DNA of 47,650 nucleotides from Patescibacteria group bacterium (GTDB lineage Bacteria; Patescibacteriota; Minisyncoccia; Phycocordibacterales; JBAYGS01). Each line of letters starts with the position of its first letter. The stretch's first letter is position 1. The position numbers and the translations under genes were made by a program. The DNA lies in NCBI GenBank assembly GCA_038078755.1, contig JBBTSQ010000032.1, positions 1 through 47,650 of the forward strand. Direction: 5' to 3'. Positions 5,573 to 22,367 of the stretch are shown piece by piece. The notes beneath the pieces were generated by a model. It did no database searches, was not told where the DNA came from, and saw only the letters and a program-made list of their open reading frames with translations.

Positions 5573-5573
5573 T

Positions 5574-6340: not shown

Positions 6341-7282
6341 GTGATCAATATATTCGCTAAAAAATCGTTGGGGCAGAATTTTCTTCACTCGAAACCGACG
6401 ATTGAGAAAATCGTAGAAGCAGGGGAGGTGGTCTCAACAGACATCGTGCTTGAAATTGGCCCGGGTACTGGGTTTTTGACCGAACAGCTTCTTTTGAAGG
6501 CTGGTAAAGTGATTGCTGTCGAAAAAGACGACCGCCTTATCCAGCCTTTGAAAGAAAAATTCTCAAAAGAAATTGCAGAAGGAAGACTTGTTGTTATCCA
6601 TGAAGACGCCTTAATTTTTGACCCTGAAGTATTCCTAGGAACCGTGAAATCGGATGCAATTCGAGGCGCAAGCGAGGCTTGTGACCAAGACGTACAGAAG
6701 TACGTTGCGGGAGCAAATGAGCGAAGCAACAAAGAAGTGCGCCGATTTCACGGTTCCTATAAATTAATTGCGAATATTCCGTATTACATTACCGGACAAT
6801 TCTTCCGCCGATTCCTGTCAGAAGTTACTCAACCAAACACACTCGTCGCCCTAATTCAAAAAGAAGTGGCGGACCGTATCGTGGCCACTGACAACAAAGA
6901 AAGTTTGCTCTCGCTTTCGGTCAAAGCCTACGGCACACCGAAACGCGTAGCGATAGTCGGACGAGGTTGTTTTACTCCCGCGCCAAATGTTGATTCGGCC
7001 ATTATCGCCATCACACACATTTCCAAACAATTTTTCGATGATTCTCCTGAGCAAGAAAAAGTATTCTTCGAACTGATTCGCGCTGGCTTTGCACATAAAC
7101 GGAAAAAGATTTTAAGCAACTTAAAATCAACTAGCAACTTACAACAAACAACTGACAATCAGAAAAGAAAGACGGTTGATTTTGAAAGACTTTTTGAAAC
7201 ACTCAAAATATCAAAAAATGTTCGGGCAGAAGATTTGACGCTCGAGATATGGAAAAAGATATTGTCGTTGCGAGTAGATTAA
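6341..7282 (+). CDS. rsmA: 16S rRNA (adenine1518/1519-N6)-dimethyltransferase RsmA/KsgA (start GTG 6341 or upstream 6308)
   Basis: 'KSLGQNFL', the SAM-binding 'EIGPGTGFLT' and 'ANIPYYITG'. An insertion of about 30 aa lies between the 'DALIFD' and 'NIPY' motifs. Confidence 0.9.
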   Translation: MINIFAKKSLGQNFLHSKPTIEKIVEAGEVVSTDIVLEIGPGTGFLTEQLLLKAGKVIAVEKDDRLIQPLKEKFSKEIAEGRLVVIHEDALIFDPEVFLGTVKSDAIRGASEACDQDVQKYVAGANERSNKEVRRFHGSYKLIANIPYYITGQFFRRFLSEVTQPNTLVALIQKEVADRIVATDNKESLLSLSVKAYGTPKRVAIVGRGCFTPAPNVDSAIIAITHISKQFFDDSPEQEKVFFELIRAGFAHKRKKILSNLKSTSNLQQTTDNQKRKTVDFERLFETLKISKNVRAEDLTLEIWKKILSLRVD

Positions 7283-7632
7283 ATAACACTCGTGCCGGTA
7301 AAAGGCAGAGGGAGCATGATTAACCCCCCTCCAAAAGGCACGAACCCAAGAAAGCAAGGAGCAAACCCTACCGCGGCACCCAAAATACCTTGCCCAACAT
7401 GATTTGGTGGAATACCGACAACCGGCGTACCGTACATCCACATAAATGGAATACCGTTCACATAGACAAGTAACCCAGTATTACATACCAAAAACGCAGT
7501 GATGTACCCCCCAAAACAAGTGCCCAGCGGGCACGGAATCGCTTGGGCATTTGCTTGAGGAATTGGTTTAGCAACAGAAAAAAGTAACCCAACAATAAGC
7601 AGTAGTACGCAGAGATGATAGAGCCGTTTCAT
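7279..7632 (-). CDS. Small secreted Gly/Pro/Cys-rich hydrophobic protein, unknown function
   Basis: Signal-peptide-like 'MKRLYHLCVLLLIVGLLFSVAKPIPQANAQA'. The gene is divergent from 7655 and shares a palindromic -10 box with it. Its stop overlaps the rsmA stop by 4 nt. Confidence 0.55.
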   Translation of the reverse strand: MKRLYHLCVLLLIVGLLFSVAKPIPQANAQAIPCPLGTCFGGYITAFLVCNTGLLVYVNGIPFMWMYGTPVVGIPPNHVGQGILGAAVGFAPCFLGFVPFGGGLIMLPLPFTGTSVI

Positions 7633-7639
7633 GACTTAC

Positions 7640-7647
7640 AGTATACT
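7640..7647. promoter_or_regulatory. Palindromic AGTATACT, a putative shared -10 box for both divergent genes
   Basis: It reads TATACT on both strands, and each copy lies exactly 7 nt upstream of an ATG (7655 plus, 7632 minus). Confidence 0.45.
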
Positions 7648-7654
7648 ATGATGT

Positions 7655-8419
7655 ATGCTAAAAATCTTCTCAACGATTGTTGCTTTGGTGATAATTGGCG
7701 CGATTGCTACTGGTAGCCTGCAGAAGACGACTTCACACAAAACACCTCCTGACTCTTTAAAAATAGTGACTCCGGCCATTTCCGTGGAGCAGAACACTAT
7801 CCCCACCAACATCATCACAAGTACTGATTGGAAAAAAAGCCTGTGGGAGACATCAGAAAAAGAATTAGGCTACCCTGAATTCATCTTCAGCAACCCAACA
7901 CCAGTGATCCCGACACACACCGAAAAGGAAGCTGACCCAGTGCTATCAGAGAAACCGACAGTAAAAAAAGATACCGCTCTCGAATCACCTGAAATAGCCG
8001 AACTGCGTTCTTTTGGAAATACACTAGGCACCACCCTTAAAACATTTTACGCCGATACCGATCGGGACAAAAATACGCTGGCAGTCTTGGCGACCACGAC
8101 AGGTACAGTCAATTTTGAAGCGGTGCGCGCTTTGAGCAAAATCTACACTGCGTTTTCGCAAACAGTTGAAGTGATACCCGCGCCGAAGGCGGTGGCTGAA
8201 TTGCACCAAGAACTTGTCTTGAGTTACCGCCACCTCGGATCAGCTATTACCACACTCGCAGAAAAAGAACCGAGCCGTCCTGACAGCCAAGCGTGGAATG
8301 GATACAACCGAGCATTGGTCGAGAGTCTTTCGGCACTGATTCATATCGCATCGTTTTTCAAGAACAACAACATCGTGTTTGCTCAAAATGAAGCGGGCGC
8401 GATATTTGTCAGTAACTGA
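7655..8419 (+). CDS. Signal-anchored protein, paralog of 8605..9585 (shared C-terminal domain)
   Basis: N-terminal TM 'IFSTIVALVIIGAIATG'. The C-terminal 'FGNTLG...LHQELV...NNIVFAQNEAGAIFVSN' aligns with 'YGNAIG...LHIALL...NGVTFTQDEGGYIFASVI' of the next gene. Confidence 0.6.
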   Translation: MLKIFSTIVALVIIGAIATGSLQKTTSHKTPPDSLKIVTPAISVEQNTIPTNIITSTDWKKSLWETSEKELGYPEFIFSNPTPVIPTHTEKEADPVLSEKPTVKKDTALESPEIAELRSFGNTLGTTLKTFYADTDRDKNTLAVLATTTGTVNFEAVRALSKIYTAFSQTVEVIPAPKAVAELHQELVLSYRHLGSAITTLAEKEPSRPDSQAWNGYNRALVESLSALIHIASFFKNNNIVFAQNEAGAIFVSN

Positions 8420-8604
8420 TGGTTGTCAAGTGTCTGTCAAGTACTTTTTTGCCTTGATCTCGGCTCGCCGAGACTATAATAACGCCTAAATAGAGCCGTT
8501 ATCACACCATATTTGTCAAGATCTTCTCGTCTATCCGAGAAGCCTACATAGAGCCATATTTTGTGTGCGCCACCACTCCAAAACCATATGCTATACTAGA
8601 CTCA

Positions 8605-9585
8605 ATGCGCTTCTCAAAAAAACAATTAATTGTCGGCATAGTGACCCTGCTCATTATCGGAGCAATTGCCTACCTCGGATTTAAAAAACCATCTGAAAAA
8701 ATATCCAAACTGTCCCCCGCAGAACAGAGGATCGCGGCGATTTTGGAAAAAGATGCTGACGAAGACGGTCTCAAAGATTGGGAGGAAGTGCTCTGGAAAA
8801 CCGACTCACACAACAAAGACAGCGATCAAGACGGCACGAGTGATGGAGAAGAAGTGTCGCTCGGCAGAAATCCGACCAAGCCTGCACCTGATGACTTCTT
8901 GAGCACCGACACGGGAACAGCCAGCACCACGACCGGTTCGACTGCGCCTAAAACCGCCACCGAAAGCTTTTCTCGAGATTTTTTCGCTAAATATATTACC
9001 TTAAAGAAAAATCAGGAAGAAGTGAGCGAAGAAGATCAAAATTTGATTATCGCCGAACTCTTGTCCAAAGAATATGCGCCGATCGAGAAGAAAACCTACG
9101 ATCTTTCATCAATCCGCATCAGTGCCGACAGCTCAAAAACCGCTCTACGCGCCTACGGCAATGCTATCGGCAAGAGTTTTATCGACAGCACCCCACAAGT
9201 GGTTGAAAACGAACTCACCCTCTTTGAAAATGCTTTGAATATCAAAAATGAAGGGGGAGATGGAAGCGCTGAAATCGCTAAACTTGACCTGATCATTGCC
9301 GGATACCAAAAAAACATCAAAGATATTCTCGCTCTTAGAACACCGAGGACGGCTCAAGACCTTCATATCGCGCTACTTAATGCGTTAAGTGGAGTTACGG
9401 TCGCCATTGAATCGTTGCGTATAGGCTATGACGATCCAGTGCGCGGTCTGACCGCCGTACAAGTCTATCAGACTGAAGTACTGGCCTTATCTGAAGCCAT
9501 GACCCAGCTGTACGCCTACTTTGTCAGAAACGGCGTTACTTTTACACAGGATGAAGGTGGTTATATCTTTGCAAGCGTTATATAA
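8605..9585 (+). CDS. Signal-anchored protein with thrombospondin-type-3-like Ca-binding Asp repeats, paralog of 7655..8419
   Basis: ATG 8605 is preceded by TGCTATACT plus 7 nt. N-terminal TM 'LIVGIVTLLIIGAIAYLGF'. Acidic repeats 'DADEDGLKDWEE' and 'DSDQDGTSDGEE'. The C-terminal domain is shared with the upstream gene. Confidence 0.65.
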   Translation: MRFSKKQLIVGIVTLLIIGAIAYLGFKKPSEKISKLSPAEQRIAAILEKDADEDGLKDWEEVLWKTDSHNKDSDQDGTSDGEEVSLGRNPTKPAPDDFLSTDTGTASTTTGSTAPKTATESFSRDFFAKYITLKKNQEEVSEEDQNLIIAELLSKEYAPIEKKTYDLSSIRISADSSKTALRAYGNAIGKSFIDSTPQVVENELTLFENALNIKNEGGDGSAEIAKLDLIIAGYQKNIKDILALRTPRTAQDLHIALLNALSGVTVAIESLRIGYDDPVRGLTAVQVYQTEVLALSEAMTQLYAYFVRNGVTFTQDEGGYIFASVI

Positions 9586-9592
9586 TTAGCGA

Positions 9593-11755
9593 ATGTACCG
9601 GGCTTCTTTTTATAAGAAGTGCATTGTTGCTCTTTTGATAGGGAGCTTTGCGCTTAGTTCTCTTTCTTTTACCGGAAAAGTATACGCCCAAGAAGGGGTC
9701 ATTACGTCAGACTTTGTAACTCGCGTAAAAAGCACAATTACCAGTATTCAAAGTACTCTCGTCGCTTTCAACAGTACACAAAGCCTTTTAAACAACACCA
9801 TTCTCCGTAAACTCGCTGTCACGATGATGCGCGCCATCATCAAGCAGATGTCGAGTGATATTATCACCTGGATCAACAGTGGTTTTGAAGGGAGCCCTGC
9901 TTTTGCCACCAATCCCGGAGGACTATTTCTCGATATCGCTGACGAAACTATCGGCCAATTTATTGAAGGCTCTGATCTCGGATTTCTCTGTTCACCATTC
10001 CGCCTCGATATCCGTATCGCGCTCGCCCAAAGCTTCCAACCGTACCGAAGAAGAGCGGGTTGTACCTTGACCGGTATCGGCAACAACGTGACTGGCTTTA
10101 TCGAAGGCAACAACTCCGGCGGATGGGACAACTGGCTCGCTCGCACCACCCAACCACAAAACAATCCGTACACTTCCTTTTTGATGGCGCAAAACGAGGT
10201 GGCCATCCGTATTGCGGGGAGAAAAGAAATTAAAGTGGCACAACTCAACTGGGGTAATGGATTTTTGAGTTGGGAGAAATGTAGCGACACTATCTACACC
10301 CAAGAGGCTCGAGAGGCAGCTAATCTCGAAAACGGCTCGGCGGCAAAAGGCACCGCGGCTTACGAATCATCCCAGAAGCAAATCAAAGCTACCCAAAGCT
10401 GTGACACCCAAACTCCCGGGAAAGTCATCCAAGACCAGTTGAGCCACACGCTCGGCACCGATCTCCGTCAGCTCGAACTCGCCGATGAAATTGATAAAAT
10501 TATCGGCGCATTGGTGACACAAGCTGCTAAACAAGCGCTTGGCGGAGTAGGCGGTCTCCTTGGCGCAAGCAAACCGCAAGCAAGTCAGGGTGGTCGGTCA
10601 TTCCTCGATACTTACAACAACACCAATCGAGACGCGCTACTTCTGCAACAAGGAGGGGAGAGTGAAATTAGCAAACGAATTACTGCAAGCAGTACTGCAT
10701 TCAACGCACAAGCACAACAACAAGAATCTGCGATTCGAATAGAGAATTCAACAGCTGTTGGTGGAGGCAGTGGAGAGTTTATTGATACCACCGAGAGAAA
10801 TATTGCGCTAAACAAACTTGCTTTCCAATCAAGTATCCAAAATGGCTACGGTCCACACCTTGCTATCGACGGAAATCTTGACGCTATTCCAAGTGGTTAT
10901 TTCAAGAATCTTGCGATTACCAACACCGAAAACCAGCCGTGGTGGGAAGTTGATCTGGGTAAAAATTACGCTATCAATCGCGTGATTATTTCTCCGCGAG
11001 GCGATGGTTATGACCCACTGATTAATTTCCATCTCTTCACTTCACCAAATCCATTCCCATCAAATTTCAACCCTGTTCTTGCGGCAACCGGCAGTGTCTT
11101 CAAGAGCTCGATTCAAAATCCGCCGGCGCCATACACCAACACCATCACGATACCGGTCAATCGAGACGCTCGATATGTTCGCATTCAAGCGGTTGACACT
11201 CGGAGTATCGACCTTGCTGAAGTACGGGTGTTTGGGGCCGATATCGCAGTCGGAGGTGGGGTAAATGGCAACACCAATCCAACCGATGATTTTGAACAAC
11301 CGCTTTCAATTTTCATCAATCCGGAAACTGCGCAGGGTATCACTTTTGGCCGAGGTGGATTGTTTAGTACTAGCTTTAGAATTACCGGAAACAAAGATGC
11401 TGTTGGATTAAAGGTAGAAAGCAACCTCTATCTTATTTCTGGGGCAAGTCGATCATCAGCGACATTTAGTGGCGTGTTTTCACAACTTCAAGCTCGATTG
11501 AGAAATAGTGGTGTCAACACCCCAACAAATGTCCCCCTAACTAGTTCACAATATGTAGTGACTCCGAGCGCAGACTTGAGTCGAGACTACGAATTTTCAG
11601 TCACCTATACAGGGAACGCTTTGCCGGTCTGCACCTATGGCTACAGAAATTGTCCGTACGTCTCCGGAGGCAACTACCAACTCGACACTAGCATCAAAGA
11701 TGTAGACGGTACCGTGCTTGGCAGACAAGTCACCGAGTTTACCTTCAACCCATAA
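9593..11755 (+). CDS. Large secreted protein with a central fucolectin/F5-8-type-C (discoidin) lectin-like domain
   Basis: Signal peptide 'ALLIGSFALSSLSFTGKVYAQ'. The stretch 'NKLAFQSS...HLAIDGN...NQPWWEVDLGKNYAINRVIISPRGD...YVRIQAV...LAEVRVFG' (about nt 10790-11230) fits the FTP/discoidin signature. The gene is tightly packed in an operon with its neighbours. Confidence 0.75.
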   Translation: MYRASFYKKCIVALLIGSFALSSLSFTGKVYAQEGVITSDFVTRVKSTITSIQSTLVAFNSTQSLLNNTILRKLAVTMMRAIIKQMSSDIITWINSGFEGSPAFATNPGGLFLDIADETIGQFIEGSDLGFLCSPFRLDIRIALAQSFQPYRRRAGCTLTGIGNNVTGFIEGNNSGGWDNWLARTTQPQNNPYTSFLMAQNEVAIRIAGRKEIKVAQLNWGNGFLSWEKCSDTIYTQEAREAANLENGSAAKGTAAYESSQKQIKATQSCDTQTPGKVIQDQLSHTLGTDLRQLELADEIDKIIGALVTQAAKQALGGVGGLLGASKPQASQGGRSFLDTYNNTNRDALLLQQGGESEISKRITASSTAFNAQAQQQESAIRIENSTAVGGGSGEFIDTTERNIALNKLAFQSSIQNGYGPHLAIDGNLDAIPSGYFKNLAITNTENQPWWEVDLGKNYAINRVIISPRGDGYDPLINFHLFTSPNPFPSNFNPVLAATGSVFKSSIQNPPAPYTNTITIPVNRDARYVRIQAVDTRSIDLAEVRVFGADIAVGGGVNGNTNPTDDFEQPLSIFINPETAQGITFGRGGLFSTSFRITGNKDAVGLKVESNLYLISGASRSSATFSGVFSQLQARLRNSGVNTPTNVPLTSSQYVVTPSADLSRDYEFSVTYTGNALPVCTYGYRNCPYVSGGNYQLDTSIKDVDGTVLGRQVTEFTFNP

Positions 11756-11758
11756 TTT

Positions 11759-13567
11759 ATGAAGCGCTACTTTACACATAGCGGGATAGTGCTTGGAGCA
11801 ATAGCCTTCTTTGGGTTGTCTTTTGGGGTGGCACATGCTCAAAACCCAGTGACTGCTGCCGTGGGTAGTTTTTTTAGCTTTAGTCTGGATACAATAGCAC
11901 TGATTGCCACATACCCACTTGAAATGCTTAGCGCCGCAATGGCAACCATCCTTTCAATAGCTGGTACACTCCTCGACACCACTATTAAACTTTCTCTCGA
12001 TACTTCATGGTACAAGGGAGCTACTGGACCAATCATTACTCTCGGATGGGGGATTGTTCGAGACTTTTTCAATCTCACCTTTATCTTCATCCTGCTGTAC
12101 AACGGCATCCGAATTATCCTTGATCTCGACAACACTCCTGACGCAAAGAGGATCGCGACCGATGTACTGATCGCCGCGCTCCTTATCAATTTCAGTCTCT
12201 TCTTCACCCAGCTCATTATTGATGGTAGCAATATGCTGGCGGTTGGGCTCTACAACAGCATTCAGACAGTTGTAAACAGCGCTGGCGCCAATAGTGTCAG
12301 TGAGGCAATCAACGTGGTTTTTGCCAACCAAGCATTGTACAACATGGGTATAAATGCGACCGGCGGATTTGATAGATTTATCAATGTTGTTTTGCGAATT
12401 GTCTTTAGTGGTATCACTGTTTACGTCTTTTTGAGCGTCTCGTTCCTCTTTATCGGCCGATTCGTGGCATTTTTCCTCCTGATGATTACTTCGCCAATCT
12501 GGATTGCGGGGGCATTGATTCCTCGACTCAAACACTATCAAGATGAGTTCCAAAAGACCTTGTTTGACCAAGCAATGCTTGCCCCCGTTTTCCTTTTCTT
12601 CCTCTATATTATCTTACAGGTGATCACTAGTGACGTGTTTGTAGCTCTAAGCCAGTCGGGAAGTGAGGTACCGGGGGGAGGCACCAACAAGACAGGGCAG
12701 ATTCTAGTCTTCGCTATTTTGGCGGCGCTACTCCTCATTGCAAAATCTGAAGCGACCAGATTGAGTGGGGAAATAGGAAAGACGATAAACGGGTATATTG
12801 GTACTGCTGCCGGCCTTGCGGCGGGTGGAGTGGGACTAATCGGTGGGGGAATTGCAAGAACTGTGGCATCAAGTACATTTGGCAAGAAAGTGATCGGTGA
12901 TGCAGTAACTGGTACAAACCAAATGGTTGGTGGAATAGGGGCGAAAGTTAATTCCGTTACTAGCCGAATTCCTTTGATGGGTAAAAAGATGCAAATTGAT
13001 GTAGCAAAGAATCAAGCCTCGGTAAGTAATGTGGGCAAAGCATTGCAAGAGGGCACCTATGACCCTCGTCGCATGACCCTACCAGGCGCAGGAAAAATCC
13101 TTGAAGCCACTATCGGTGCTAAAAATCTTGGTGGTTTATTTAAAAAAGCGGGGATTGATATGGGAGATACAAAAAGCCCTGCCGAAATTGAACGAGAAAG
13201 ACGAAAGGAGGCTGAGGAAAAAATCAAAGATTCAGCAAAAAAGAAACGGGAAGAAGATAATAAAGCACTCAACATCTATGTTACTGATCGATCAAGAACT
13301 TCTATTGAAATCAAAAATGCTATCGAAGGTATGGACAAAGATCAGTTTAAATCTATTGACCCTAAGGTATTCGCTGAAAATGTACATGCAGCCCGTAGTT
13401 TGAGTAAGGCACAACTTCAAAAACTTCAAGAAAATGCGTCTGTAACACAAGCAGATAGAATCGCAATAAAAAATCACATAGTAACCCCTCCTCCTCTCCC
13501 AGGAGTTGCCCTAACAGAAGCGGAACAGTTTATGCTCACCGGGGCAGGAAGAGCTCTTTGGCAATAG
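11759..13567 (+). CDS. Polytopic (>=7 TM) membrane protein with a charged C-terminal tail, VirB6/TrbL-like candidate
   Basis: Signal-like N-terminus and many long hydrophobic helices. The tail 'ERERRKEAEEKIKDSAKKKREEDNK' is Lys/Glu-rich. Its context with VirB4/PrgI-like genes supports the call, but family assignment is not verifiable by eye. Confidence 0.55.
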   Translation: MKRYFTHSGIVLGAIAFFGLSFGVAHAQNPVTAAVGSFFSFSLDTIALIATYPLEMLSAAMATILSIAGTLLDTTIKLSLDTSWYKGATGPIITLGWGIVRDFFNLTFIFILLYNGIRIILDLDNTPDAKRIATDVLIAALLINFSLFFTQLIIDGSNMLAVGLYNSIQTVVNSAGANSVSEAINVVFANQALYNMGINATGGFDRFINVVLRIVFSGITVYVFLSVSFLFIGRFVAFFLLMITSPIWIAGALIPRLKHYQDEFQKTLFDQAMLAPVFLFFLYIILQVITSDVFVALSQSGSEVPGGGTNKTGQILVFAILAALLLIAKSEATRLSGEIGKTINGYIGTAAGLAAGGVGLIGGGIARTVASSTFGKKVIGDAVTGTNQMVGGIGAKVNSVTSRIPLMGKKMQIDVAKNQASVSNVGKALQEGTYDPRRMTLPGAGKILEATIGAKNLGGLFKKAGIDMGDTKSPAEIERERRKEAEEKIKDSAKKKREEDNKALNIYVTDRSRTSIEIKNAIEGMDKDQFKSIDPKVFAENVHAARSLSKAQLQKLQENASVTQADRIAIKNHIVTPPPLPGVALTEAEQFMLTGAGRALWQ

Positions 13568-13579
13568 TTTTACATCACT

Positions 13580-14281
13580 ATGTTACCAAACAAAAACAAT
13601 CTGCAAGAAGCATATGCGAATCTCCCACAAGATTTGAAAGATGCATTGTATTCAATAGATTTTGCCAAAACCATCCAAACTATTGGAACTGACCAAGGTC
13701 TTCTAATAGACCAGACCGGTAAACTGGCTGAAGAAATCGGTTTTGTGATGCTCGGCGTTACTCATCCGGACAAATTCGCAGACACTATTGTGCGCAAACT
13801 CTCTATTTCAACAGAAAAAGCATATGCAATCACTAAAGAAGTAAACGAGAAGATATTTCTAAGTATCCGCGCGTCGCTTCAGAAAATCCACTCGGGGGAG
13901 GGAATTGGGGAAGACGACTCCGACACTTCGGTCGGAGCTCCGACTAAAACGTCGGAGCAGGAGACAGTTCGTGTCAATCTGACACAAACTAGCCCCGATT
14001 TTGACCATATTCCAAGCCGAGAATCCGTGCTGGCGGAAATTGAGAATCCAAAATCAATAGTAAACACTGGCCCAGTAAATGCTTTGGCTCCCAAACCTCC
14101 CCTAAACAACCTACCTCAAGCACCTCTAACAAAAACAGTCCTTACTAATGAAAAGACGGCTCCTGCTCCAGTCAATCTGCCCACCGCCCCAGTAGGCATT
14201 CTCGAGAGCAAGCTCCATACCGTCGTCAAAAGCGAAAATCCCACCCCTAAACACGATCCGTATCGAGAGCCAGTAGAGTAG
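13580..14281 (+). CDS. Hypothetical protein with a Pro-rich C-terminal half
   Basis: 233-aa ORF, 12 nt after the preceding gene. No recognisable motif. Confidence 0.5.
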   Translation: MLPNKNNLQEAYANLPQDLKDALYSIDFAKTIQTIGTDQGLLIDQTGKLAEEIGFVMLGVTHPDKFADTIVRKLSISTEKAYAITKEVNEKIFLSIRASLQKIHSGEGIGEDDSDTSVGAPTKTSEQETVRVNLTQTSPDFDHIPSRESVLAEIENPKSIVNTGPVNALAPKPPLNNLPQAPLTKTVLTNEKTAPAPVNLPTAPVGILESKLHTVVKSENPTPKHDPYREPVE

Positions 14282-14429
14282 ACACAAAACTCACAATACA
14301 CAACATACAACTTACAATCAGAGGAGACACGTTAGAGACCCTCTCTTTTATGAGGTGACACCTGAGAATCAGAGAATAATTCGTTAGGTCTTGCCTAACG
14401 CATTAAATAAAAAGTGGGTATGATATAAA

Positions 14430-15026: not shown

Positions 15027-15245
15027 TTAACCCTATTGTAGCAAAAGGCAACGCAAAACCCCAGCGGACCTTTCGGCTAGCTGGGGCGTGTATAAATACA
15101 TACTATACTATAGAATATTTTTCGTCAATGGGGTGTTGATAAGTAAGACATAGCGCATGTACATCCAATCAAAGGAAATGAATTCAACAGCAGAGCAGCT
15201 CTGCTCTGTCATTGGAGGCAGTCTTATTGAGCCATAATATGAAGT

Positions 15246-15288
15246 AAAGGCTCAATCCGCCGTGGCGGATTGAGCCTTTACCTTTTTT
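15246..15288. terminator. Hairpin aaaggctcaatccgcc-gtgg-ggcggattgagccttt with a T-run on the plus strand
   Basis: 13-bp GC-rich stem followed by 'accttttttg' on the plus strand. It lies just downstream of the minus-strand PrgI-like gene. A near-identical hairpin occurs at 33528-33561. Confidence 0.6.
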
Positions 15289-15321
15289 GATTGTAAATTG
15301 TGAGTTGTGGGTTGTGAGTTG

Positions 15322-15741
15322 TCAGTTACCCCTTTTCCCCACATCTTTCACGTCCAAACTCCACGTCAAATCCTTGAGCTTGCTATCTGAAAGGCGGGGG
15401 ACGTAGAGAGGAACAGAGGTTTCTGGTACCTGTTCAGCACTTGGGGTAATCACTTTGTCTTGTTTTTTCCAAATAAACAACTTTGAACCCATACTATACT
15501 TAAATGCCGCCTCCACCACCTCGATAAATGGCTTGCCGTTTATTTTATAAAATGCCAGCGCGAGACCAAAGCCCATTATCACAATAATTGGCAGGCCAGA
15601 AATATAAATCGAGGGGGTAAATCGGAAAATCAAAAAAGATAGCCCGCCGGCGCCGGTGAGGTAGATAAATTGTCGAAGTGTCAGTATGCCACCAATAATT
15701 TTGTCCTGCACTTCAATAAATTGAGGCACTTGAAATTGCAT
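15322..15741 (-). CDS. PrgI-family (VirB3-like) small T4SS membrane protein
   Basis: 'MQFQVPQFIEVQDKIIGGILTLRQFIYL' followed by two TM helices is the PrgI-family N-terminal pattern. The gene lies immediately downstream of the VirB4-like gene. Confidence 0.7.
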   Translation of the reverse strand: MQFQVPQFIEVQDKIIGGILTLRQFIYLTGAGGLSFLIFRFTPSIYISGLPIIVIMGFGLALAFYKINGKPFIEVVEAAFKYSMGSKLFIWKKQDKVITPSAEQVPETSVPLYVPRLSDSKLKDLTWSLDVKDVGKRGN

Positions 15742-15895
15742 AGGGTAAGTATAGCAGGCAAAATCAATTTTGTCAGAAAAATTGATTTTGCCTGCTAAAT
15801 TTCTAATACCTAAGTCCTAATTTCTAAATAAAATTAAGAAATGGCTCTTTTTCTTAGAGTTAGGAATTATAATTTAGAACTTAGGACTTTCGCGA

Positions 15896-17710
15896 CTACT
15901 TTGCACTTGTCGCGAGTTCCTGCTTCGCCCGTTTAATAGCCAAGATTTGAGAAGGGTCTGAAGTAATAATCTGATCTTCGGTGTACGAAGCAATCACTTT
16001 AATCGCCACATGTTTCAATCCCACAAAGAAAATCCCTTCTCCCACATCAGATTCGAGCAAGAGGAATTTTTCTTCATCGGTAAGATTGAACGTCTTTTGA
16101 ACAGTATCAATCGAGGACGGAGATTGTTTGAGCAAAATCTGGATTGATGAGTTGGTCACAATCGGCAAGCCATATGGTGATTTCAAAAAGTCATCGACGT
16201 CTTGGGTGATGGTGGCAAGTCCCAAATAATATTTTCGTCCGCGCTTTGCAAGGGAGAGCAGGAAGGATGCGGTGTCTTCCGACTTCATCATCCACCACGC
16301 TTCATCGATCACCAAAAGGCGTTTTTTGAGATTCTTACGCACCGCGTTCCAGATATAATGAGTGACAATATACATCGCTACCGGCTTCAACTCATCTTCC
16401 ATATCCCGAAGCGAGAAGACGATAAATTTCTTGTTGATATCAACGTTGGTCGGACGATTGATAAAGCCCGCCCACGTCCCCTTGGTATATTTGGTCAGTT
16501 TTTGTACCAGTGAATCTGCTCCCTCCATACCAGCGAGCACCAGCTCAAAGTCAGAGAGAAGTGGCGGTTCTATTTTTGAGAAGTCAGCATCGGCGGTAAT
16601 ACCTTTGAGCGCGTAGGTTTCGGTAATCGCTCGATCAATAATCGCATCTTCTTCGGGCGAAAGTCCCCCGAGCATAATGCGGAATAGTCCGACCAAATTG
16701 ATGATGTTTGATCGAAGAACATCGGCAGGGGACTCATCTTCTCTTGGGATTGGCAGATCAAATGGGTTGATGTGGTTGGTAGAGTTGAGAGAGATATTAA
16801 AATACTTTCCACCGGTAGCTTCTGCCATATATTCATACTCACGTTCTGGGTCAATCACAATCACCTCGGTATCAAACATCAACGTACGCAAAATCTCGAG
16901 TTTGGTAGTGTATGATTTTCCTGAACCGGATTTTGCAAAAGTGATCGAGTTGTAATTTTCAAGTGAAAATCGGTCAAACAGCACCATGCTCGAGTTGTGG
17001 CGGTTGACTCCAAACAAAATTCCCTTGTCAGATGTCAGGTCAAAGGATACAAATGGGAACATACTCGAAAGCGGGGAGGAGTTGAGTTTCGAATGTACAT
17101 TGAGCTGGTCATCCACAATCGGCAATGAGCTCATATATCCTTGCTCCTGTTGAAACAGCGCTGGTTTCACATAGACCAATTTTGATTCGAGAATCGATTT
17201 GATTTCCGACTCGGTCTTATCAAGTTCATTCACATTTTCACCATAAATAGTGATGTATAGTCCAACATCAAAAAGCTTTTCTTGGGCTTGCTGGAGATTA
17301 TCTCGAAGGCCTTCGAGATCGTGATAGGCAGTATCGAGCATTGGATCGCGGACGAGTCCTTTCGCTTCACGTTGATTAATCTGGCTCTGTACTTCGGCCA
17401 CTTTCTTTTGAAATTGGCGGAGTACCTGCGCGGTATCAATCGGATGAATAAAAAGAGAAATGTTGAAAATCTTTTCGAGATTGATAATAGGGGAGAACCA
17501 TGAGTCAGTCAAAAAGCGCGGGTAGGAAATGACAAAAAAGGTGCGGACGATCTTGTCTCCCAAATTGAGCTCTCGGGGGCTGATTTTGAGCGCGCTTGGC
17601 GCGATCACATCTTGGAGTTCAAGCACCCCTGCATCATAAATTTGCTGGGGCAGAATCGGCGCAATACTCGCCTCTGGCTTTTTCTTTTTTAAGAAATCAA
17701 AAAATCCCAT
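15896..17710 (-). CDS. virB4: VirB4/TraC/PrgJ-like type IV secretion ATPase
   Basis: Walker A 'AKSGSGKSYTTK', Walker B 'RLLVIDEAWWMM' and 'LATITQDVDDF'. The N-terminal 'IAPSALKI...VRTFFVISYPRFL' domain is typical of VirB4. Confidence 0.9.
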   Translation of the reverse strand: MGFFDFLKKKKPEASIAPILPQQIYDAGVLELQDVIAPSALKISPRELNLGDKIVRTFFVISYPRFLTDSWFSPIINLEKIFNISLFIHPIDTAQVLRQFQKKVAEVQSQINQREAKGLVRDPMLDTAYHDLEGLRDNLQQAQEKLFDVGLYITIYGENVNELDKTESEIKSILESKLVYVKPALFQQEQGYMSSLPIVDDQLNVHSKLNSSPLSSMFPFVSFDLTSDKGILFGVNRHNSSMVLFDRFSLENYNSITFAKSGSGKSYTTKLEILRTLMFDTEVIVIDPEREYEYMAEATGGKYFNISLNSTNHINPFDLPIPREDESPADVLRSNIINLVGLFRIMLGGLSPEEDAIIDRAITETYALKGITADADFSKIEPPLLSDFELVLAGMEGADSLVQKLTKYTKGTWAGFINRPTNVDINKKFIVFSLRDMEDELKPVAMYIVTHYIWNAVRKNLKKRLLVIDEAWWMMKSEDTASFLLSLAKRGRKYYLGLATITQDVDDFLKSPYGLPIVTNSSIQILLKQSPSSIDTVQKTFNLTDEEKFLLLESDVGEGIFFVGLKHVAIKVIASYTEDQIITSDPSQILAIKRAKQELATSAK

Positions 17711-17778
17711 ATAGACATAGTATACTATGTAAATTTCTAATTTCTAAGTCCTAATTTCTAATAACTGCTGATTGGACA

Positions 17779-18154
17779 TTACTTTGTAACACTTTTATCT
17801 CTCGAATTCTTCACAATGGTAATAAAAATGAGGTGTAATTCGTGGGCTTCCTGCCACAAACGCCTTGCGGTATCAGCATATTCTGGTTTTGCTCGAGCAA
17901 TCATTCTGAGCCAATATCTCGATTCTTTGGCTTCTTCTTTACAAATACCAATTTTATGTTCAAAATCCTTTTTTGATTCTGCACAATCAGCCTCGCAATA
18001 AATTAGAGCCAATACTTGTTGCAGACCGCGCAAGCTGATTTACCAGTGTTGAAGTAATACTATCTTTAGGAATTTTCTTTAAAAAGTCTATGGCTTTTTC
18101 TCCAAATACCGCCGTCCTCTCCTCGAGATCATAAACTTTCTTGCTCTGATTCAT
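17779..18154 (-). pseudogene. Four-helix-bundle protein gene (23S rRNA-IVS / Avd-like family) disrupted by a +1 frameshift near 18000-18002
   Basis: From ATG 18154 the reading frame gives 'MNQSKKVYDLEERTAVFGEKAIDFLKKIPKD..NQLARSATSIGSN', then stops at codon 56. The family continuation 'YCEADCAESKKDFEHKIGICKEEAKESRYWL' is in the next frame. One extra T in 'aatTtat' explains the shift. Confidence 0.7.
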
Positions 18155-18183
18155 TAGAAATTATAATTTAGAAATTAGGGATT

Positions 18184-18225
18184 GCCCATTTCTTTAGCTT
18201 AGTCGACTAAGCTAAAGAAATGGGC
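18184..18225. terminator. 42-nt perfect palindrome overlapping the stop codon of 18207..18848
   Basis: gcccatttctttagcttagtc|gactaagctaaagaaatgggc, a 21-bp stem centred on GTCGAC. Confidence 0.6.
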
Positions 18226-18848
18226 TTCTCGGTGTCGCCTGGATTAAATATCTTGTAAAACAACTCGATGATTTCCTCGGTACCAAGCTGAACCACTCGA
18301 ACACCCGACCGCATCAGCCCTTGGGTCACCACAGACGCTCGCTGGTCAAGCTGGGTGCGATTTTCTTCAAACGAAGCGGTTTTCTCTGCTACAGTTTCTT
18401 GCCCTTTTTTTGAAAAAATACCACCGACGCCCTTGGAAGCATTGAGGGTTGGGGGTGTATATGGTACAGACACAAAGAAAGTCTTAGTCATAATGTTGGC
18501 GTTGTCGGTAAAGTTTTTCACAAATTCGATATACTCGCGAGTTTGAATTTTCAAAATATCACTCATTTGCTGTTTTTGTCGCTCTTCAAGGAGAGCGACG
18601 TACGGCCTGATATCAAGCCGACGAGATTGCACAAACACTTGTATAGAAAAATCGAGAGAGTTTAGGAAATTTTGGAATTGGTAGATGATAGATTGCTGTT
18701 CGTCTGCCGATTTCAAGGCGAAGTTGATCGATGATGCCATCAAAATAATTCGCATCCCGCCGTTTTTGAGAATAAGTACCCCATCTCGTACCTCCTTGAT
18801 CGGTACAAATTCTTGAGTGGTTTTTGCATTTTGGGTACTTTCAGACAT
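18207..18848 (-). CDS. Stand-alone protein resembling the N-terminal domain of Gram-positive VirB4/TraC ATPases
   Basis: 'FVPIKEVRDGVLILKNGGMRIILMASSINFALKSADEQQSIIYQFQNFLNSLDFSIQVFV' follows the N-domain pattern seen in Tn916 Orf16-type VirB4. There is no Walker motif. ATG 18848 is preferred because the upstream ATG 18866 lies inside a TGGTATACT box. Confidence 0.5.
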   Translation of the reverse strand: MSESTQNAKTTQEFVPIKEVRDGVLILKNGGMRIILMASSINFALKSADEQQSIIYQFQNFLNSLDFSIQVFVQSRRLDIRPYVALLEERQKQQMSDILKIQTREYIEFVKNFTDNANIMTKTFFVSVPYTPPTLNASKGVGGIFSKKGQETVAEKTASFEENRTQLDQRASVVTQGLMRSGVRVVQLGTEEIIELFYKIFNPGDTEKPISLA

Positions 18849-18929
18849 TTGAGGTAAGTATACCATAGGAGGAAATTCCTAATTCCTAAATTATAATTTC
18901 TAATGGGGATAATGGTGGAGGGGAAATTT

Positions 18930-18962
18930 CTCTGGCTTCGCCAGATCTCCTGCGGAGCGAGA
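18930..18962. repeat. 33-nt inverted repeat, left arm (partner 22392-22424, 32/33)
   Basis: tctggcttcgccagatctcctgcggagcgagat. It contains the local hairpin tctggc-ttc-gccaga. Confidence 0.85.
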
Positions 18963-19120
18963 TAAGTTCTAATACCTAATTTCTAAAAGGAATCAAAGAT
19001 AGACGAGAAAGCCTCTGGTTTAGAAATTAGGACTTAGGTATTAGCAATTTGTGTTCGCAGTCATTTTGTGTGTCCACACCCAACTAGATACTATGAAATA
19101 TAGGATGGTATACTATATAT

Positions 19121-20131
19121 ATGGTCTTTCTTCGTAGATTATTGGTGATGCTTATTGCCTGTACTGCGGGCTTCGGTCTTTTTTCGACTACTGTTTCTGC
19201 ACAGCTCGCTCCACTTTCTCAATCAATTCTCCAAGTCACCCTCACTCCTGAAAATCCCGCCCCAAATGATGCGGTGTTTGCCCGAGTAGACAGCTACAAT
19301 TTCGACCTCGATACCACCGAGATAGTATGGTACGTAAACGGCGCCTTGCAGACGAGAGGTATGGGGGTCCGACAGTTTAATTTTACCGCGCCCGCGCTTG
19401 GCAAGACCATCGCGCTCAAAGTAGTCGCCCGACACAAGACCCTTGGTGACTTAGAGCAGTCAATTTCTTTGCGGACCGGTGATGTTGAGGTGATATGGGA
19501 ATCTGTTGGCTACACTCCGCCCTTTTATAAAGGTAAGACCCATCATGCATACGGGGGAGTGGTACGCTATATCGCCATCCCGCGACTTACCGACAAAAAT
19601 GGTACCGAAATTTCAGCAAGCAACCTTGTCTACACATGGAAAAAGAATAGCAAGGTAATCCAAGATCAATCTGGTTTTGGCAAATCAAACATTGTGGTTT
19701 CAGACGACAGTTATGTTCGCGATGGCAACGAGATTTCTGTCGAAGTATCAAGCACCGATCATACCGCGCAGGCGACCGGCTACAGCGGAGTCAGTCCTAC
19801 CGTAAGCAAGGTGGTGGTATACGAAAAAGATCCTGCGCTCGGCACACTATACAACAAAGCGGTGGGAAATCTGTTTAGTATTTTTGGTGATGAAGCCGAA
19901 TTAGTGGCAGAACCGTACTTTTTTTCCGTAACCACTCGGGATGCGGGTCAGATCGAATACGAGTGGCTGGTAAACGACCGTCCGGTGAGCGGGAATGACA
20001 AAAAAAGTGTTGTGATACTGAAACCAGCCCCCGGAGCTTCTGGCAAAGCCAATCTGTCATTGATTGTGCAAAACCAGCGACAGATTTTGCAGGGAGGAAA
20101 GTTGTTTAGCACTGTCTATTTTGGGAATTAA
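19121..20131 (+). CDS. Secreted protein built from three beta-rich (Ig-like?) internal repeats
   Basis: Signal peptide 'LIACTAGFGLFSTTVSAQ'. The recurring pattern is 'EIVWYVNG..', 'NLVYTWKKNSKVI..', 'IEYEWLVNDRPV..'. TGGTATACT lies 6 nt upstream of the ATG. Confidence 0.6.
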   Translation: MVFLRRLLVMLIACTAGFGLFSTTVSAQLAPLSQSILQVTLTPENPAPNDAVFARVDSYNFDLDTTEIVWYVNGALQTRGMGVRQFNFTAPALGKTIALKVVARHKTLGDLEQSISLRTGDVEVIWESVGYTPPFYKGKTHHAYGGVVRYIAIPRLTDKNGTEISASNLVYTWKKNSKVIQDQSGFGKSNIVVSDDSYVRDGNEISVEVSSTDHTAQATGYSGVSPTVSKVVVYEKDPALGTLYNKAVGNLFSIFGDEAELVAEPYFFSVTTRDAGQIEYEWLVNDRPVSGNDKKSVVILKPAPGASGKANLSLIVQNQRQILQGGKLFSTVYFGN

Positions 20132-20136
20132 ATTCT

Positions 20137-21117
20137 ATGCGGCATACTACTTCATTTTTTATACACACACTGTCCTTGATGATGATCTTGTGGGCACTGT
20201 CATCGCCAGTGGCGCTTTCAGCGGCACCAATCAGCTATGTCCCGCTCCAACCCGTCCCCGGAGTACCCGTAGGCAATGCTGATTTCAAAACCTACCTTAT
20301 TGCCGGGTTTAAAATCGGGATCAGTGTCGCGGGCATTTTGAGTGTGTTAATGCTTGTCGTTGCCGGTTTTCAATACGCCACCACCGACGCTTTTACCGGA
20401 AAAGAAGAGTCAAAAAACAAAATGACCAAGGTGGTCTATGGCCTCGTGCTGATTCTGGTATCGTATATTCTTCTCAACACAGTCAACAAAGACACGGTCT
20501 CCCTCAAACTCGACTTTGGCGCCCAAGATGCAGTAAACAGGATTGGTGGGGGGTTTCGAGATGGGCTTGCATACAACCGAGCACAAGCTATCCTAAATCA
20601 AAAACTTCGCGAGGCGGTATCTCAATACAGTGAGGGAAGGGCAGAAATAGACACACTCACATCACGAATTAATGATCTAAACGAAAGGATGGAGAATAAT
20701 ATTGATAATCCAATGGAGTACGAGAGGTTGCGTGTGCAAGCTGCTGATCTCGAGAATCAAAAGAACATCTTGGGACAACAAATAGAAAGCGCTCGGGTGA
20801 TGTCTGTATATCAAACTGATTATGATAAAGCGATGTTAGAAATAAATAACAAAGCTATCAATAAAGATGGTTATCTGTTAGCAAAAAAGAATTTCGAAAC
20901 AGCCCAAACATACTACTCTCAAGTAAAAAGGTCTTTGGAGGCAGGAGATCAAGCTTCAAAAGATGCTGCAAAGGCCTTAGATATACGCTGGACTCGTCAA
21001 TTGGAGGATTATAATAAAAAACTGACCGAGATTGAGACAAAATATCCAGTATTCACCCAAGGTAATCAAACATACACGGGCCAAAATTATTTTGTCCCAG
21101 GAACACCTGTTAGATAA
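20137..21117 (+). CDS. VirB2/TrbC-like T4SS pilin domain fused to a ~200-aa coiled-coil C-terminal extension
   Basis: A signal peptide is followed by 'YLIAGFKIGISVAGILSVLMLVVAGFQYATT...KNKMTKVVYGLVLILVSYILLNTV', a two-helix hairpin as in TrbC/VirB2 pilins. A heptad-rich Glu/Lys/Gln tail follows. Confidence 0.55.
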   Translation: MRHTTSFFIHTLSLMMILWALSSPVALSAAPISYVPLQPVPGVPVGNADFKTYLIAGFKIGISVAGILSVLMLVVAGFQYATTDAFTGKEESKNKMTKVVYGLVLILVSYILLNTVNKDTVSLKLDFGAQDAVNRIGGGFRDGLAYNRAQAILNQKLREAVSQYSEGRAEIDTLTSRINDLNERMENNIDNPMEYERLRVQAADLENQKNILGQQIESARVMSVYQTDYDKAMLEINNKAINKDGYLLAKKNFETAQTYYSQVKRSLEAGDQASKDAAKALDIRWTRQLEDYNKKLTEIETKYPVFTQGNQTYTGQNYFVPGTPVR

Positions 21118-21128
21118 ATTATAATATT

Positions 21129-22367
21129 ATGTCCAAAAAAACCGCCACATTGCTCATACTCCTCATTCTCATCATTTTTGGTATTGTTGGTTTTTGGTTT
21201 TATCAACGAGCGCAACAGAGTGGCGGGGGTGAGACCGATACTTCATTTTTTAATTTTTTCCCGTTTGGTAAGCTTGACGTGAATACCGGCACTACCGACG
21301 GCAGCAATGGTTTCGAAGATATCGCTACCACCACCGATACTGGTACTGGCATGGTTGAATTACCTACACTACACAAAATTTCAGATGAGCCGGTCGCGGG
21401 AGGGATCGTGTTTGCAGAAAATACCGTAAATACCGTCCGCTACATCGAGCGCGCCACCGGTCACATCTATCAAGTGCCGTTTGATGCGATGGACAAAGAG
21501 CGAGTATCGATTACTACCATCCCCAAACTCTATGAATCGGTTTGGACTAGTGGGGGAGCGGGAGTACTTGTGCGTTACCTAAAAGGGACGTCAGAAGCTG
21601 TTGAGACTTTTTCACTCAATCTCTCGAGCATTTCCGGCGCGGCATCCGGCGCGCCAGCGGAGGGGACTTTCTTCCCAAAAAATATCTCATCGATCACTGC
21701 CAACCCTGCAAAAACCTCCCTATTCTACATAGTACCCAACGATACTGGCAGTATCGGCTATATCAGCAACCCGACCAATACCATCAAAACCTCCGTATTC
21801 AACTCACCACTAAAAGAGTGGACCGCTACCTGGCCAAAAGAAGACACCATTGCCATCAGTCCAAAACCTGCTCACGGCATTTTCGGACACCTCTTTTTTC
21901 TCAACACCAAAACCAACAAGCTTTCAAAAGTGCTTTCAAAAGTGCCAGGGCTTACCGCATTACCAAACACCGATGCATCGGCAATTCTGTACAGTCGAAG
22001 TGGTGGAAACGACACGCGCCTCTACATCAAAAGTCTAAAAACAGGAGCTGTTCGAGAGATGCCTTTCGCGACACTCCCTGAAAAATGCGTCTGGGCCCAG
22101 ACTCAAAGTCTCTTGCTTTTCTGCGCGGTGCCGAAAGAGGGGATGCAGGGTGAACTGCCTGATATTTGGTATCAGGGATTGGTGTCATTTAGTGATCAGG
22201 TATGGCGAGTGGATGTTGAAACGGGAGCCACTGACCTCATCGCTGACCCGGATGAACTGGCATTTATCCCGCTTGATATCATCGACATATCACTCGCGCC
22301 CGATGACAGTGTGATGACATTTACCAACAAAAAAGATCTTACTTACTGGGGACTTAGGCTCAGGTAA
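21129..22367 (+). CDS. Signal-anchored protein, beta-propeller-like (TolB/PD40-like?) ectodomain
   Basis: N-terminal TM 'TATLLILLILIIFGIVGFWFY' and a long beta-rich remainder. Last gene of the three-gene plus-strand unit. Confidence 0.5.
   Translation: MSKKTATLLILLILIIFGIVGFWFYQRAQQSGGGETDTSFFNFFPFGKLDVNTGTTDGSNGFEDIATTTDTGTGMVELPTLHKISDEPVAGGIVFAENTVNTVRYIERATGHIYQVPFDAMDKERVSITTIPKLYESVWTSGGAGVLVRYLKGTSEAVETFSLNLSSISGAASGAPAEGTFFPKNISSITANPAKTSLFYIVPNDTGSIGYISNPTNTIKTSVFNSPLKEWTATWPKEDTIAISPKPAHGIFGHLFFLNTKTNKLSKVLSKVPGLTALPNTDASAILYSRSGGNDTRLYIKSLKTGAVREMPFATLPEKCVWAQTQSLLLFCAVPKEGMQGELPDIWYQGLVSFSDQVWRVDVETGATDLIADPDELAFIPLDIIDISLAPDDSVMTFTNKKDLTYWGLRLR

Follow-up and report, generated by a model that had tools for sequence, protein, structure and literature searches.

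A probable type IV secretion-like machine without DNA-transfer parts at an origin-proximal locus of a Paceibacteria genome

Introduction

Which kind of machine is encoded by a cluster of mostly signal-anchored or secreted proteins around a VirB4 ATPase, if neither a relaxase nor a coupling protein stands beside them? This question is raised by positions 7279-22367 of a 47,650-nt stretch of DNA (the window; contig JBBTSQ010000032.1 of the Patescibacteria group assembly GCA_038078755.1, from an uncultivated organism), for which an original prediction, made from the sequence alone, had proposed a non-conjugative device for host contact or uptake. We conclude that this 15-kb stretch very probably encodes a chromosomal type IV secretion system (T4SS)-like machine that is carried by most Patescibacteria and comes without DNA-transfer parts. 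The machine is, in all likelihood, a derivative of a monoderm (MPF-FATA-like) conjugation apparatus minus its DNA-processing functions. By analogy with Southlakia epibionticum, the likely task of the Patescibacteria machine is contact with a host cell.

What Patescibacteria use their T4SS for is recognised in the field as an open question, and the system is essential in the sole species tested. A monophyletic Patescibacteria VirB4 clade is nested in MPF-FATA, with TrsD, PrgI/VirB3, VirB6 and VirB2-like pilins encoded near virB4 (Quinonero-Coronel et al. 2025, PMC12102498). Relaxases are almost absent from these clusters, which in Paceibacteria are located beside dnaA, dnaN, rnpA, ksgA and rpmH (PMC12102498). 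In S. epibionticum, the T4SS (SEML1_0006-0019) is essential for epibiotic growth; pilins are present, and recognizable coupling or relaxase proteins are absent (Wang et al. 2023, PMC10633639). In Patescibacteria that are parasitic on archaea, T4SS pilins and a protein with a galactose-binding fold are among the most highly expressed unknown genes (PMC10936435). The function of the system has been termed "completely unknown" (PMC11665869), and reviews speculate on effector delivery or uptake.

Chromosomal setting and conservation of the locus

Homolog searches with proteins of the window return, as closest database entries, metagenome-assembled genomes (MAGs) named Candidatus Parcubacteria, Paceibacterota and Taylorbacteria, in line with the episymbiotic small-genome bacterium that had been predicted. 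Contigs identical to the window occur in assemblies from the Hainich groundwater well H52. Profile searches place housekeeping genes on both sides of the cluster: a ComM-like protein, an M23/LysM peptidase, UvrD, a PaaX-like protein and KsgA on the left, and Jag/KhpB, YidC, RnpA, DnaA, DnaN, PBP1 and a class I aminoacyl-tRNA synthetase (Trp/Tyr type) on the right, followed by RuvC, YebC, RuvB, PilB, TsaE and PolA. The window stems from a Parcubacteria/Paceibacteria chromosome, in the vicinity of the replication origin. In GC content, the cluster (0.447) does not differ from its flanks, and no tRNA gene is found in the window.

A scan of one genome per species yielded 497 relatives of the VirB4 protein, from which the best 80 loci were taken; 40 of these had full 10-kb flanks and are referred to as full-length loci. 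In nearly all of the 40, which belong to Paceibacteria, the genes follow one order on one strand: UvrD, KsgA, a gap, g340, g720, VirB6-like, g233, PrgI, TrsD-like, VirB4, g336, pilin and g412, where the names beginning with g denote proteins of the cluster that are described below. YidC follows on the opposite strand, and then DnaA and DnaN; in single loci, one or two of the less conserved genes have no detectable match. The co-occurrence that was to be checked across Patescibacteria genomes is thereby confirmed for this group. Because the collinear order between ksgA and yidC/dnaA recurs in nearly all of the 40 loci, the cluster is a vertically inherited core locus and not a mobile element.

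Every open reading frame (ORF) named in the original prediction is present where it had been placed. We count 12 proteins as belonging to the system, 9 of which carry an N-terminal hydrophobic segment or several transmembrane segments, as expected for a cluster of mostly signal-anchored or secreted proteins. The notion that these genes form one operon does not hold, since the cluster of the window genome is split over both strands and two unrelated genes (an NYN gene and an IVP pseudogene, see below) are inserted.

The absence of a relaxase, VirD4 and VirB11 had been noted for the window. Profile searches of every sizeable ORF over its 47.6 kb found no member of the relaxase, VirD4/TcpA, VirB11 or integrase families, and none of the four is present among the called genes in about 10 kb beyond each end of the window (about 67 kb overall), where the flanking genes are housekeeping genes. 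The sole T2SSE-family ATPase of the window is PilB.

The split VirB4 and PrgI

VirB4 (15896-17710, minus strand, 604 aa) is the ATPase of the system. It matches the NCBIfam model NF045971 (conju_CD1110) at 2e-111 and 373 bits (cutoff 325) over model positions 185-733 of 752, as well as P-loop_TraG at 2e-26, and the best curated VirB4 model belongs to the MPF-FATA family. The Walker A (GSGKS) and Walker B (VIDEAW) motifs, with residues G261, G263, K264, S265, D468 and E469, are unchanged in 18 homologs. Database searches retrieve 8000 proteins at E<=1e-20; among the best 120 matches listed, every named one stems from Patescibacteria or from an unclassified "bacterium" MAG, at 83-100% identity.

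The TrsD-like protein (18207-18866, minus strand, 219 aa) corresponds to the separate VirB4-N-domain protein of the original prediction. It covers model positions 2-114 of NF045971 at 3e-6 and positions 96-231 of VirB4_plasma at 3e-9, and it matches TrsD (NF041427) at 1e-4, under the full-length cutoff of that model; its orthologs carry a precomputed PF26593 (TraC-like) match. The TrsD-like gene immediately precedes virB4 in all 40 relatives. VirB4 is split in two, an N-domain protein and the ATPase proper, because the 219-aa protein fits positions 2-114 and the 604-aa ATPase only positions 185-733 of the same full-length model. This "TrsD" arrangement is known from pGO1 and from Patescibacteria (PMC12102498). 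Profile alignment (hhalign) of the TrsD-like family with the 604-aa VirB4 family gave no signal, which is expected because the two families cover different parts of VirB4, and a search of PDB profiles with the TrsD-like family returned nothing.

PrgI (15322-15741, minus strand) is a small membrane protein of the PrgI/VirB3 type with a hydrophobic hairpin at residues 37-65. Its match to PF12666 (1e-10, 42.5 bits, cutoff 27) lies above the gathering score, and its assignment thus stands, as do those of VirB4 and of the detached N-domain. The PrgI gene is found in 40/40 full-length loci, directly upstream of TrsD-VirB4, and it lies beside virB4 in the window too.

Few proteins of the genome are as conserved as the ATPase. 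In the congener L081, VirB4 shares 97% identity with that of the window and DnaA (25071-26420) 93%; in L084, the values are 88% versus 67%. Across the 80 retained related species, VirB4 identity amounts to 79-86%. The median over related loci with a detectable match is 81% for VirB4, a figure slightly inflated by the choice of these loci by VirB4 similarity, 61.5% for DnaA and 53% for DnaN. In each of these comparisons, VirB4 is conserved beyond DnaA, DnaN, YidC or UvrD. These values point to strong purifying selection on the engine. For a secretion ATPase, this degree of conservation is out of the ordinary and speaks for a core role in the cell.

The same data bear on the possibility that the cluster is a remnant, or the cargo, of an integrated conjugative element, i.e. 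a decaying Gram-positive-type module minus relaxase and coupling protein. The best NCBIfam model for VirB4 is indeed that of the CD1110 conjugative-transposon family, and the PrgI and TrsD families were first defined on conjugative plasmids. However, the position between ksgA and dnaA and the gene order are kept in nearly all of 40 species, integrase, tRNA and GC deviation are missing, all cluster genes are intact except the inserted IVP gene, and a VirB4 that is more conserved than DnaA is the opposite of decay. On synteny, composition and conservation we reject this explanation as largely refuted and extremely improbable.

Another alternative is a machine that imports DNA or nucleotides, like ComB of Helicobacter pylori or the archaeal Ced system, and that would take up DNA from the host or the environment as a source of nucleotides that the cell cannot make. 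Nucleotide synthesis is missing in Patescibacteria, and import by the T4SS has been proposed for them (PMC11665869); VirB4 shows weak partial matches to CedB (1e-9) and CedD (5e-4), and an export-type coupling protein is not nearby. However, the Ced matches span the generic P-loop region only and remain far under cutoff, and neither CedA nor ComB-specific components were found. In addition, the competence channel ComEC of Southlakia is dispensable whereas its T4SS is essential, so that any import would need a new route. We consider such an import machine unlikely.

VirB6-like protein and pilin fusion

The product of 11759-13567 (plus strand, 602 aa) is a probable polytopic membrane protein of the VirB6/TrbL type, with 8 hydrophobic segments, a linker rich in Gly and a charged tail that makes up the C-terminal ~200 aa. 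The predicted count of at least seven transmembrane segments is thus borne out, and the match to TrbL is nearly full-length (model positions 26-213 of 215), but its score (E=0.0028, 17.9 bits) remains below the cutoff of 25.9. TrbL is matched by 8 of 55 orthologs, and 13/97 homologs carry a precomputed TrbL_3 or TrbL match; no competing family appears in either set. With the transmembrane core of the family as profile, the best PDB match is TrwI, the VirB6 protein of R388 (E=0.02); the full-length family profile retrieves merely coiled-coil noise from the tail. Taken together, the sequence comparisons make VirB6 the probable identity of the protein.

The pilin gene (20137-21117, plus strand) encodes 326 aa, in which a signal peptide and two transmembrane helices (about residues 26-126) form a VirB2/T4SS-pilin hairpin; a variable tail of ~200 aa, rich in heptads, is fused to it. 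The protein itself matches T4SS_pilin (PF18895) at 1e-4 with 22.7 bits, sub-threshold with respect to the cutoff of 26.6. Among positional orthologs, 51/54 match PF18895 (best 2e-11) and 7 match TrbC/VirB2. Heptad-like windows extend over residues 151-316. A VirB2-like hairpin with a coiled-coil-like tail, as had been predicted, is supported by both observations. In relatives, the protein is conserved at residues ~26-126 only; the tails differ among orthologs, and single ones bear He_PIG, VanY, CHAP or SLT domains.

The lectin-like protein g720

Directly upstream of the VirB6-like gene, 9593-11755 (plus strand) encodes g720, a secreted or anchored protein of 720 aa. It consists of a Cys-containing, all-alpha N-domain (~64-326), a domain resembling F-type lectins (~400-550) and a C-terminal beta-sandwich (~582-720). 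F5_F8_type_C is matched at 1.5e-12. An AlphaFold2 (AF2) model of the lectin domain reaches a predicted local distance difference test score (pLDDT) of ~90, and its top Foldseek matches are F-type lectins, namely the fucose-binding modules of lectinolysin and SpX (4gwi, 2j1t, 3lei; E ~6e-10, TMt 0.80-0.84). F-type lectins such as S. mitis lectinolysin, the S. pneumoniae SP2159 modules and fish fucolectins resemble g720 over residues ~400-550 (phmmer 2e-11, 26-30% identity, TM score 0.8) and share the motifs PWWxVDL and RGD with it. Unlike in these lectins, the domain is fused in g720 to an N-domain specific to the T4SS cluster.

Of the predicted fucolectin/discoidin sugar-binding domain, the fold is therefore retained, but the fucose-binding His aligns to Ile. 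The F-type lectin triad of one His and two Arg (H...RxDxxxxR) is not found in g720: the Arg of "RGD" is kept, and the second Arg has no clear place. Because the fucose-binding His is not conserved, the ligand of g720 is not predictable.

In 52 relatives, g720 is conserved in the N-domain only. The C-terminal modules of its orthologs are of the F5/8-C type in 6/53, and others are Ig-like or InlB B-repeat modules. For residues 1-400, the AF2 model has a pLDDT of 65.6, and a Foldseek search of the PDB with the N-domain model found nothing below E=0.6. DUF4141 matches 3/53 orthologs (best 1e-5), with two precomputed matches in addition. DUF4141 marks a gene beside traJ/VirB6 in Bacteroides conjugative transposons (PMC10434189). 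On this weak recurrent match, and as a lead only, the N-domain might fill the niche of VirB5/TraI.

Fast-diverging surface parts

The closest strain is L093. Between L093 and the window, DnaA is 99.6%, DnaN 100% and VirB4 99.5% identical, whereas identity drops to 64% for the pilin fusion, 70% for the VirB6-like protein and 83% for g720. No nucleotide alignment is obtained over the VirB6 tail or the pilin tail. Even between near-identical strains, the tails of the pilin and of VirB6 as well as the g720 C-terminus are swapped or diverge fast, which makes them natural candidates for determinants of host specificity.

That the fastest-varying components are surface modules (C-termini of the lectin/Ig type and pilin tails, including those with He_PIG, VanY, CHAP or SLT domains) would also fit an apparatus for adhesion only, in which VirB4, VirB3 and VirB6 just assemble or display pilin-hairpins and lectin adhesins, with no translocation. 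The lack of a coupling protein agrees with such an apparatus, and VirB4 drives pilus biogenesis (PMC12102498). However, the window also has a gene for type IV pili (PilB), and in Saccharibacteria such pili are implicated in adhesion (PMC12857230, PMC10633639). Furthermore, the extreme conservation of VirB4 and the fact that the system is essential in Southlakia hint at a role beyond that of just another adhesin. A pure adhesion apparatus appears quite unlikely to us.

Other accessory proteins of the cluster

The remaining conserved members of the cluster lie on the plus strand. The protein g340 (8563-9585, 340 aa) is N-terminally anchored (transmembrane segment 22-40), with a TSP3 repeat of the Ca-binding type (TSP3_bac 9e-6) and a conserved C-terminal domain; its gene is present upstream of the lectin gene in 34/40 full-length loci. 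Its likewise N-terminally anchored paralog g254 (7655-8419, 254 aa; one transmembrane segment at 4-22) shares the C-terminal helical domain (BLASTP 2e-6 to the C-terminal 145 aa of g340) and matches no family. The gene for g233 (13580-14281, 233 aa), sited between the VirB6-like gene and PrgI, occurs in 29/40 loci; the protein consists of a conserved N-terminal region of ~150 aa and a Pro-rich tail, has no transmembrane segment and finds no Pfam or NCBIfam family.

Directly downstream of virB4, and in 40/40 full-length loci, stands the gene for g336 (19121-20131, 336 aa), a secreted protein with a signal-like segment at 2-20 and probably three Ig-like beta domains. Its orthologs show faint matches to BiPBP_C and Ig_3, and the family profile finds an Ig-like receptor in the PDB at a non-significant E=0.015. 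The last gene of the cluster encodes g412 (21129-22367, 412 aa), N-terminally anchored (transmembrane segment 6-24), probably a beta-propeller and likewise present in 40/40 loci; faint matches of its orthologs comprise PD40, DPPIV_N and DUF5050, and the best PDB profile is TolB (E=0.05, not significant).

Cluster membership is uncertain for a secreted or hydrophobic protein of 117 aa at the left border (7279-7632, minus strand), with a signal-like segment at 7-25 and a hydrophobic C-terminal half. It is found in the closest relatives only (87% identity in L093, 57% in L081) and has no Pfam or NCBIfam match. Its candidacy as an extra pilin was rejected, as it is not pilin-like by hhalign.

Inverted VirB4 block, heptamer arrays and inserted genes

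The window genome agrees with three independent assemblies (L086, L087 and L093) in encoding PrgI, VirB4 and TrsD on the strand opposite to the rest of the cluster. Compared to the collinear order of the 40 more distant Paceibacteria loci, the PrgI/VirB4/TrsD block (15322-18866) is inverted and re-ordered. Compared to L081, the arms 15797-15828 and 19019-19050, an inverted pair of 32 nt with 97% complementarity, enclose exactly the segment that is flipped, TrsD-IVP-VirB4. These arms belong to tandem arrays of 7-nt units (TTAGNNN type, in both orientations; period 7 in Tandem Repeats Finder, TRF), which bracket VirB4, the IVP pseudogene and TrsD: the left arm is located at the PrgI/VirB4 boundary (15796-15891), the right arm at the TrsD/g336 boundary (18871-19050). 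The NYN gene is bracketed by arms of its own (14288-14320 and 15288-15320) and is flipped versus L081 as well.

Inverted arrays of about 4 heptamer copies bracket single genes, namely NYN, TrsD-like, VirB4 and both IVP genes. Further arrays lie near the cluster (17730-17762, 18152-18186, 22373-22388), at 46307-46323/46749-46776, and elsewhere in the window (952-980, 3425-3456, 23894-23987, 34347-34373, 41053-41090). Among the tandem repeats of the window, those of period 7 prevail (20/36 TRF rows); at a stringent threshold, 5 period-7 arrays are found versus 0 in shuffles, and none for the other periods from 4 to 11. In the congener L081, the brackets are built alike, but from another heptamer (TTGTNNN in place of TTAGNNN). 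In the literature searched, we found no relevant description of heptamer repeats in Patescibacteria, or candidate phyla radiation (CPR), genomes.

The Paceibacteria T4SS could be viewed as a modular host-range device, in which rapidly exchangeable receptor-binding modules (the g720 C-terminus and the tails of the pilin and of VirB6) would choose the host for an ultra-conserved engine (split VirB4 and PrgI). In the genus of the window, the engine would be placed in cassettes bracketed by inverted 7-nt arrays, and recombination between these arrays would invert the cassettes and possibly switch expression of the machine. As a whole, we regard this extended hypothesis as improbable.

Two kinds of genes are inserted into the cluster. 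A gene for an NYN-domain (LabA-like RNase) protein (14430-15026, minus strand) separates g233 from PrgI. None of the 80 GTDB relatives has it, nor does L093, and L081 carries it in opposite orientation; a second NYN gene is located ~9 kb upstream of the window start (L089). A terminator-like hairpin (15244-15281, plus strand) with a 17-bp stem containing 9 GC pairs, followed by CTTTTTTG, is situated in a spacer of 295 nt that lies upstream of the minus-strand NYN gene. It is not preceded by an ORF on the plus strand and could be the terminator of a small RNA or a leftover of cassette inversion. Rfam at gathering thresholds gave no match in the window.

The second kind is the 23S-rRNA-IVP family (four-helix bundle), which is represented by two genes, at 17779-18150 (minus strand) and 46335-46721 (plus strand). 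The former, between TrsD and VirB4, is a pseudogene here (an 84-aa ORF and a detached N-terminal part) and is intact, with 120 aa, in L081 and L093. The latter, which follows polA, is intact, and a perfect inverted repeat (GGTAGTTAGTAGTTAG and its reverse complement) encloses it. The IVP genes look like small invasive cassettes.

Proposed mechanism and its weak points

For the T4SS-like machine without DNA transfer, we hypothesize the following mode of action. PrgI and the N-domain protein would dock a VirB4 hexamer to the membrane, and VirB4 would power the extraction of the pilin-hairpin subunit from the membrane. On the VirB6 platform, this subunit may be assembled into a short, cell-wall-spanning fibre or conduit that would pass through wall-spanning accessory proteins. 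The variable lectin, Ig and tail modules would bind to surface structures of the host, and the assembled device would exchange macromolecules or nutrients with the host cell; DNA would not be conjugated. As to the function itself, export, import and attachment only appear to have roughly even chances.

Several points weigh against this model. Support for VirB6 is below threshold (E 0.003-0.02). A pilin with a 200-aa tail may not polymerise like VirB2 and could be a membrane-anchored display protein. No Pfam or NCBIfam match to a VirB8-like (NTF2-fold) or VirB1-like (cell-wall hydrolase) component is found in any cluster ORF; both components are mostly undetected in the published Patescibacteria systems too. 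Homologs of the type IV coupling protein (T4CP) are reported elsewhere in most Patescibacteria genomes, usually far from virB4 (PMC12102498). The fucose-coordinating His in the "THT" motif of lectinolysin aligns (phmmer) to the Ile of "AIT" in g720, so that sugar binding by this protein is putative. Finally, a function in host contact or uptake would be carried over from the essentiality in Southlakia, which belongs to another class (Saccharimonadia). Of the device foreseen by the original prediction, the components hold, with VirB6 as a probable one, and relaxase and T4CP are absent over ~67 kb; host contact or uptake is the part that draws on Southlakia.

Further genes of the window

A secreted M23 peptidase with two LysM domains (1036-2184, minus strand) is encoded 5 kb upstream of the cluster; in 8/80 relatives, such a gene lies within 10 kb of virB4. 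M23 and LysM domains occur on some VirB1-like proteins of Patescibacteria (PMC12102498). The peptidase may be the missing wall-opening enzyme, or simply a division hydrolase.

PilB, a type IV pilus ATPase of 634 aa with an MshEN domain (39356-41260, minus strand; T2SSE 1e-117), is encoded ~17 kb downstream of the cluster and is followed by small unannotated ORFs (41300-43082), possibly pilins. Just upstream of ksgA, a PaaX-family protein (5568-6140, plus strand) combines an N-terminal hydrophobic segment with a middle domain that resembles Cas2 (PaaX_M 4e-21); a gene of this family is found at that position in 2/80 relatives only. The UvrD of the closest strain (L093 20614-21818) is a product of 1045 aa with an intein-splicing domain, which the 669-aa UvrD of the window (3430-5439) does not contain. 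This is a presence/absence polymorphism of an intein between near-identical strains.

Comparison with known systems

The monoderm T4SS of the MPF-FATA type (Prg/Pcf of pCF10, Trs of pGO1, and CD1110 of C. difficile CTn2) shares with the window the VirB4 family, PrgI, a TrsD-like protein and, probably, a protein of the VirB6/PrgH type, and has no outer-membrane core either. Unlike these systems, the cluster contains no relaxase, T4CP, VirB1-type hydrolase (PrgK/TrsG), VirB8-like PrgL or PrgB adhesin. On the other hand, it contains a VirB2-like pilin, which Gram-positive systems lack, and its locus is part of the chromosomal core, not mobile.

Effector translocators without a T4CP, such as Bordetella Ptl and Brucella VirB, are likewise non-conjugative and manage without a coupling protein. 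However, they are diderm MPF-T systems with VirB7, VirB9, VirB10 and VirB11, none of which is found in the window. The DNA-uptake systems ComB of H. pylori and Ced of Sulfolobales employ a VirB4-family ATPase in a non-conjugative role, with an import direction that has been proposed for Patescibacteria as well. In contrast to them, homologs of ComB8-10 or CedA/A1/A2 are missing here, and the similarity to CedB is of the generic P-loop kind alone.

The closest counterpart is the T4SS of the Patescibacteria clade (PMC12102498; PMC10633639), which likewise has VirB4 beside a TrsD-like protein and PrgI/VirB3, a VirB6 homolog (a probable one in the window), a VirB2-like pilin, no relaxase, and the location at dnaA, dnaN, rnpA and ksgA. 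Where the published clusters have an array of 2-11 short pilins, the window has a single long-tailed pilin-hairpin gene, and no peptidase or lysozyme gene adjoins virB4. The proteins g340, g720, g233, g336 and g412 are specific to Paceibacteria and are unannotated in PMC12102498. In the genus of the window, moreover, an IVP gene interrupts the VirB4 block, which is also inverted.

The system itself is already published, and our finding is a correct rediscovery, because both the repertoire and the dnaA-proximal location are given in PMC12102498 and PMC10633639. The original prediction had considered the module as a whole poorly described, which is at odds with these reports and with a review (PMC12857230). 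Not covered by PMC12102498 and PMC10633639 are the accessory gene set, the modular and fast-evolving g720 C-terminus, pilin tail and VirB6 tail, the hyper-conservation of VirB4 relative to other proteins, and the repeat-bracketed inversion. For Paceibacteria, the largest class, the comparison contributes a concrete list of conserved accessory genes and presents the lectin/Ig modules, the pilin tail and the VirB6 tail as the fast-evolving parts.

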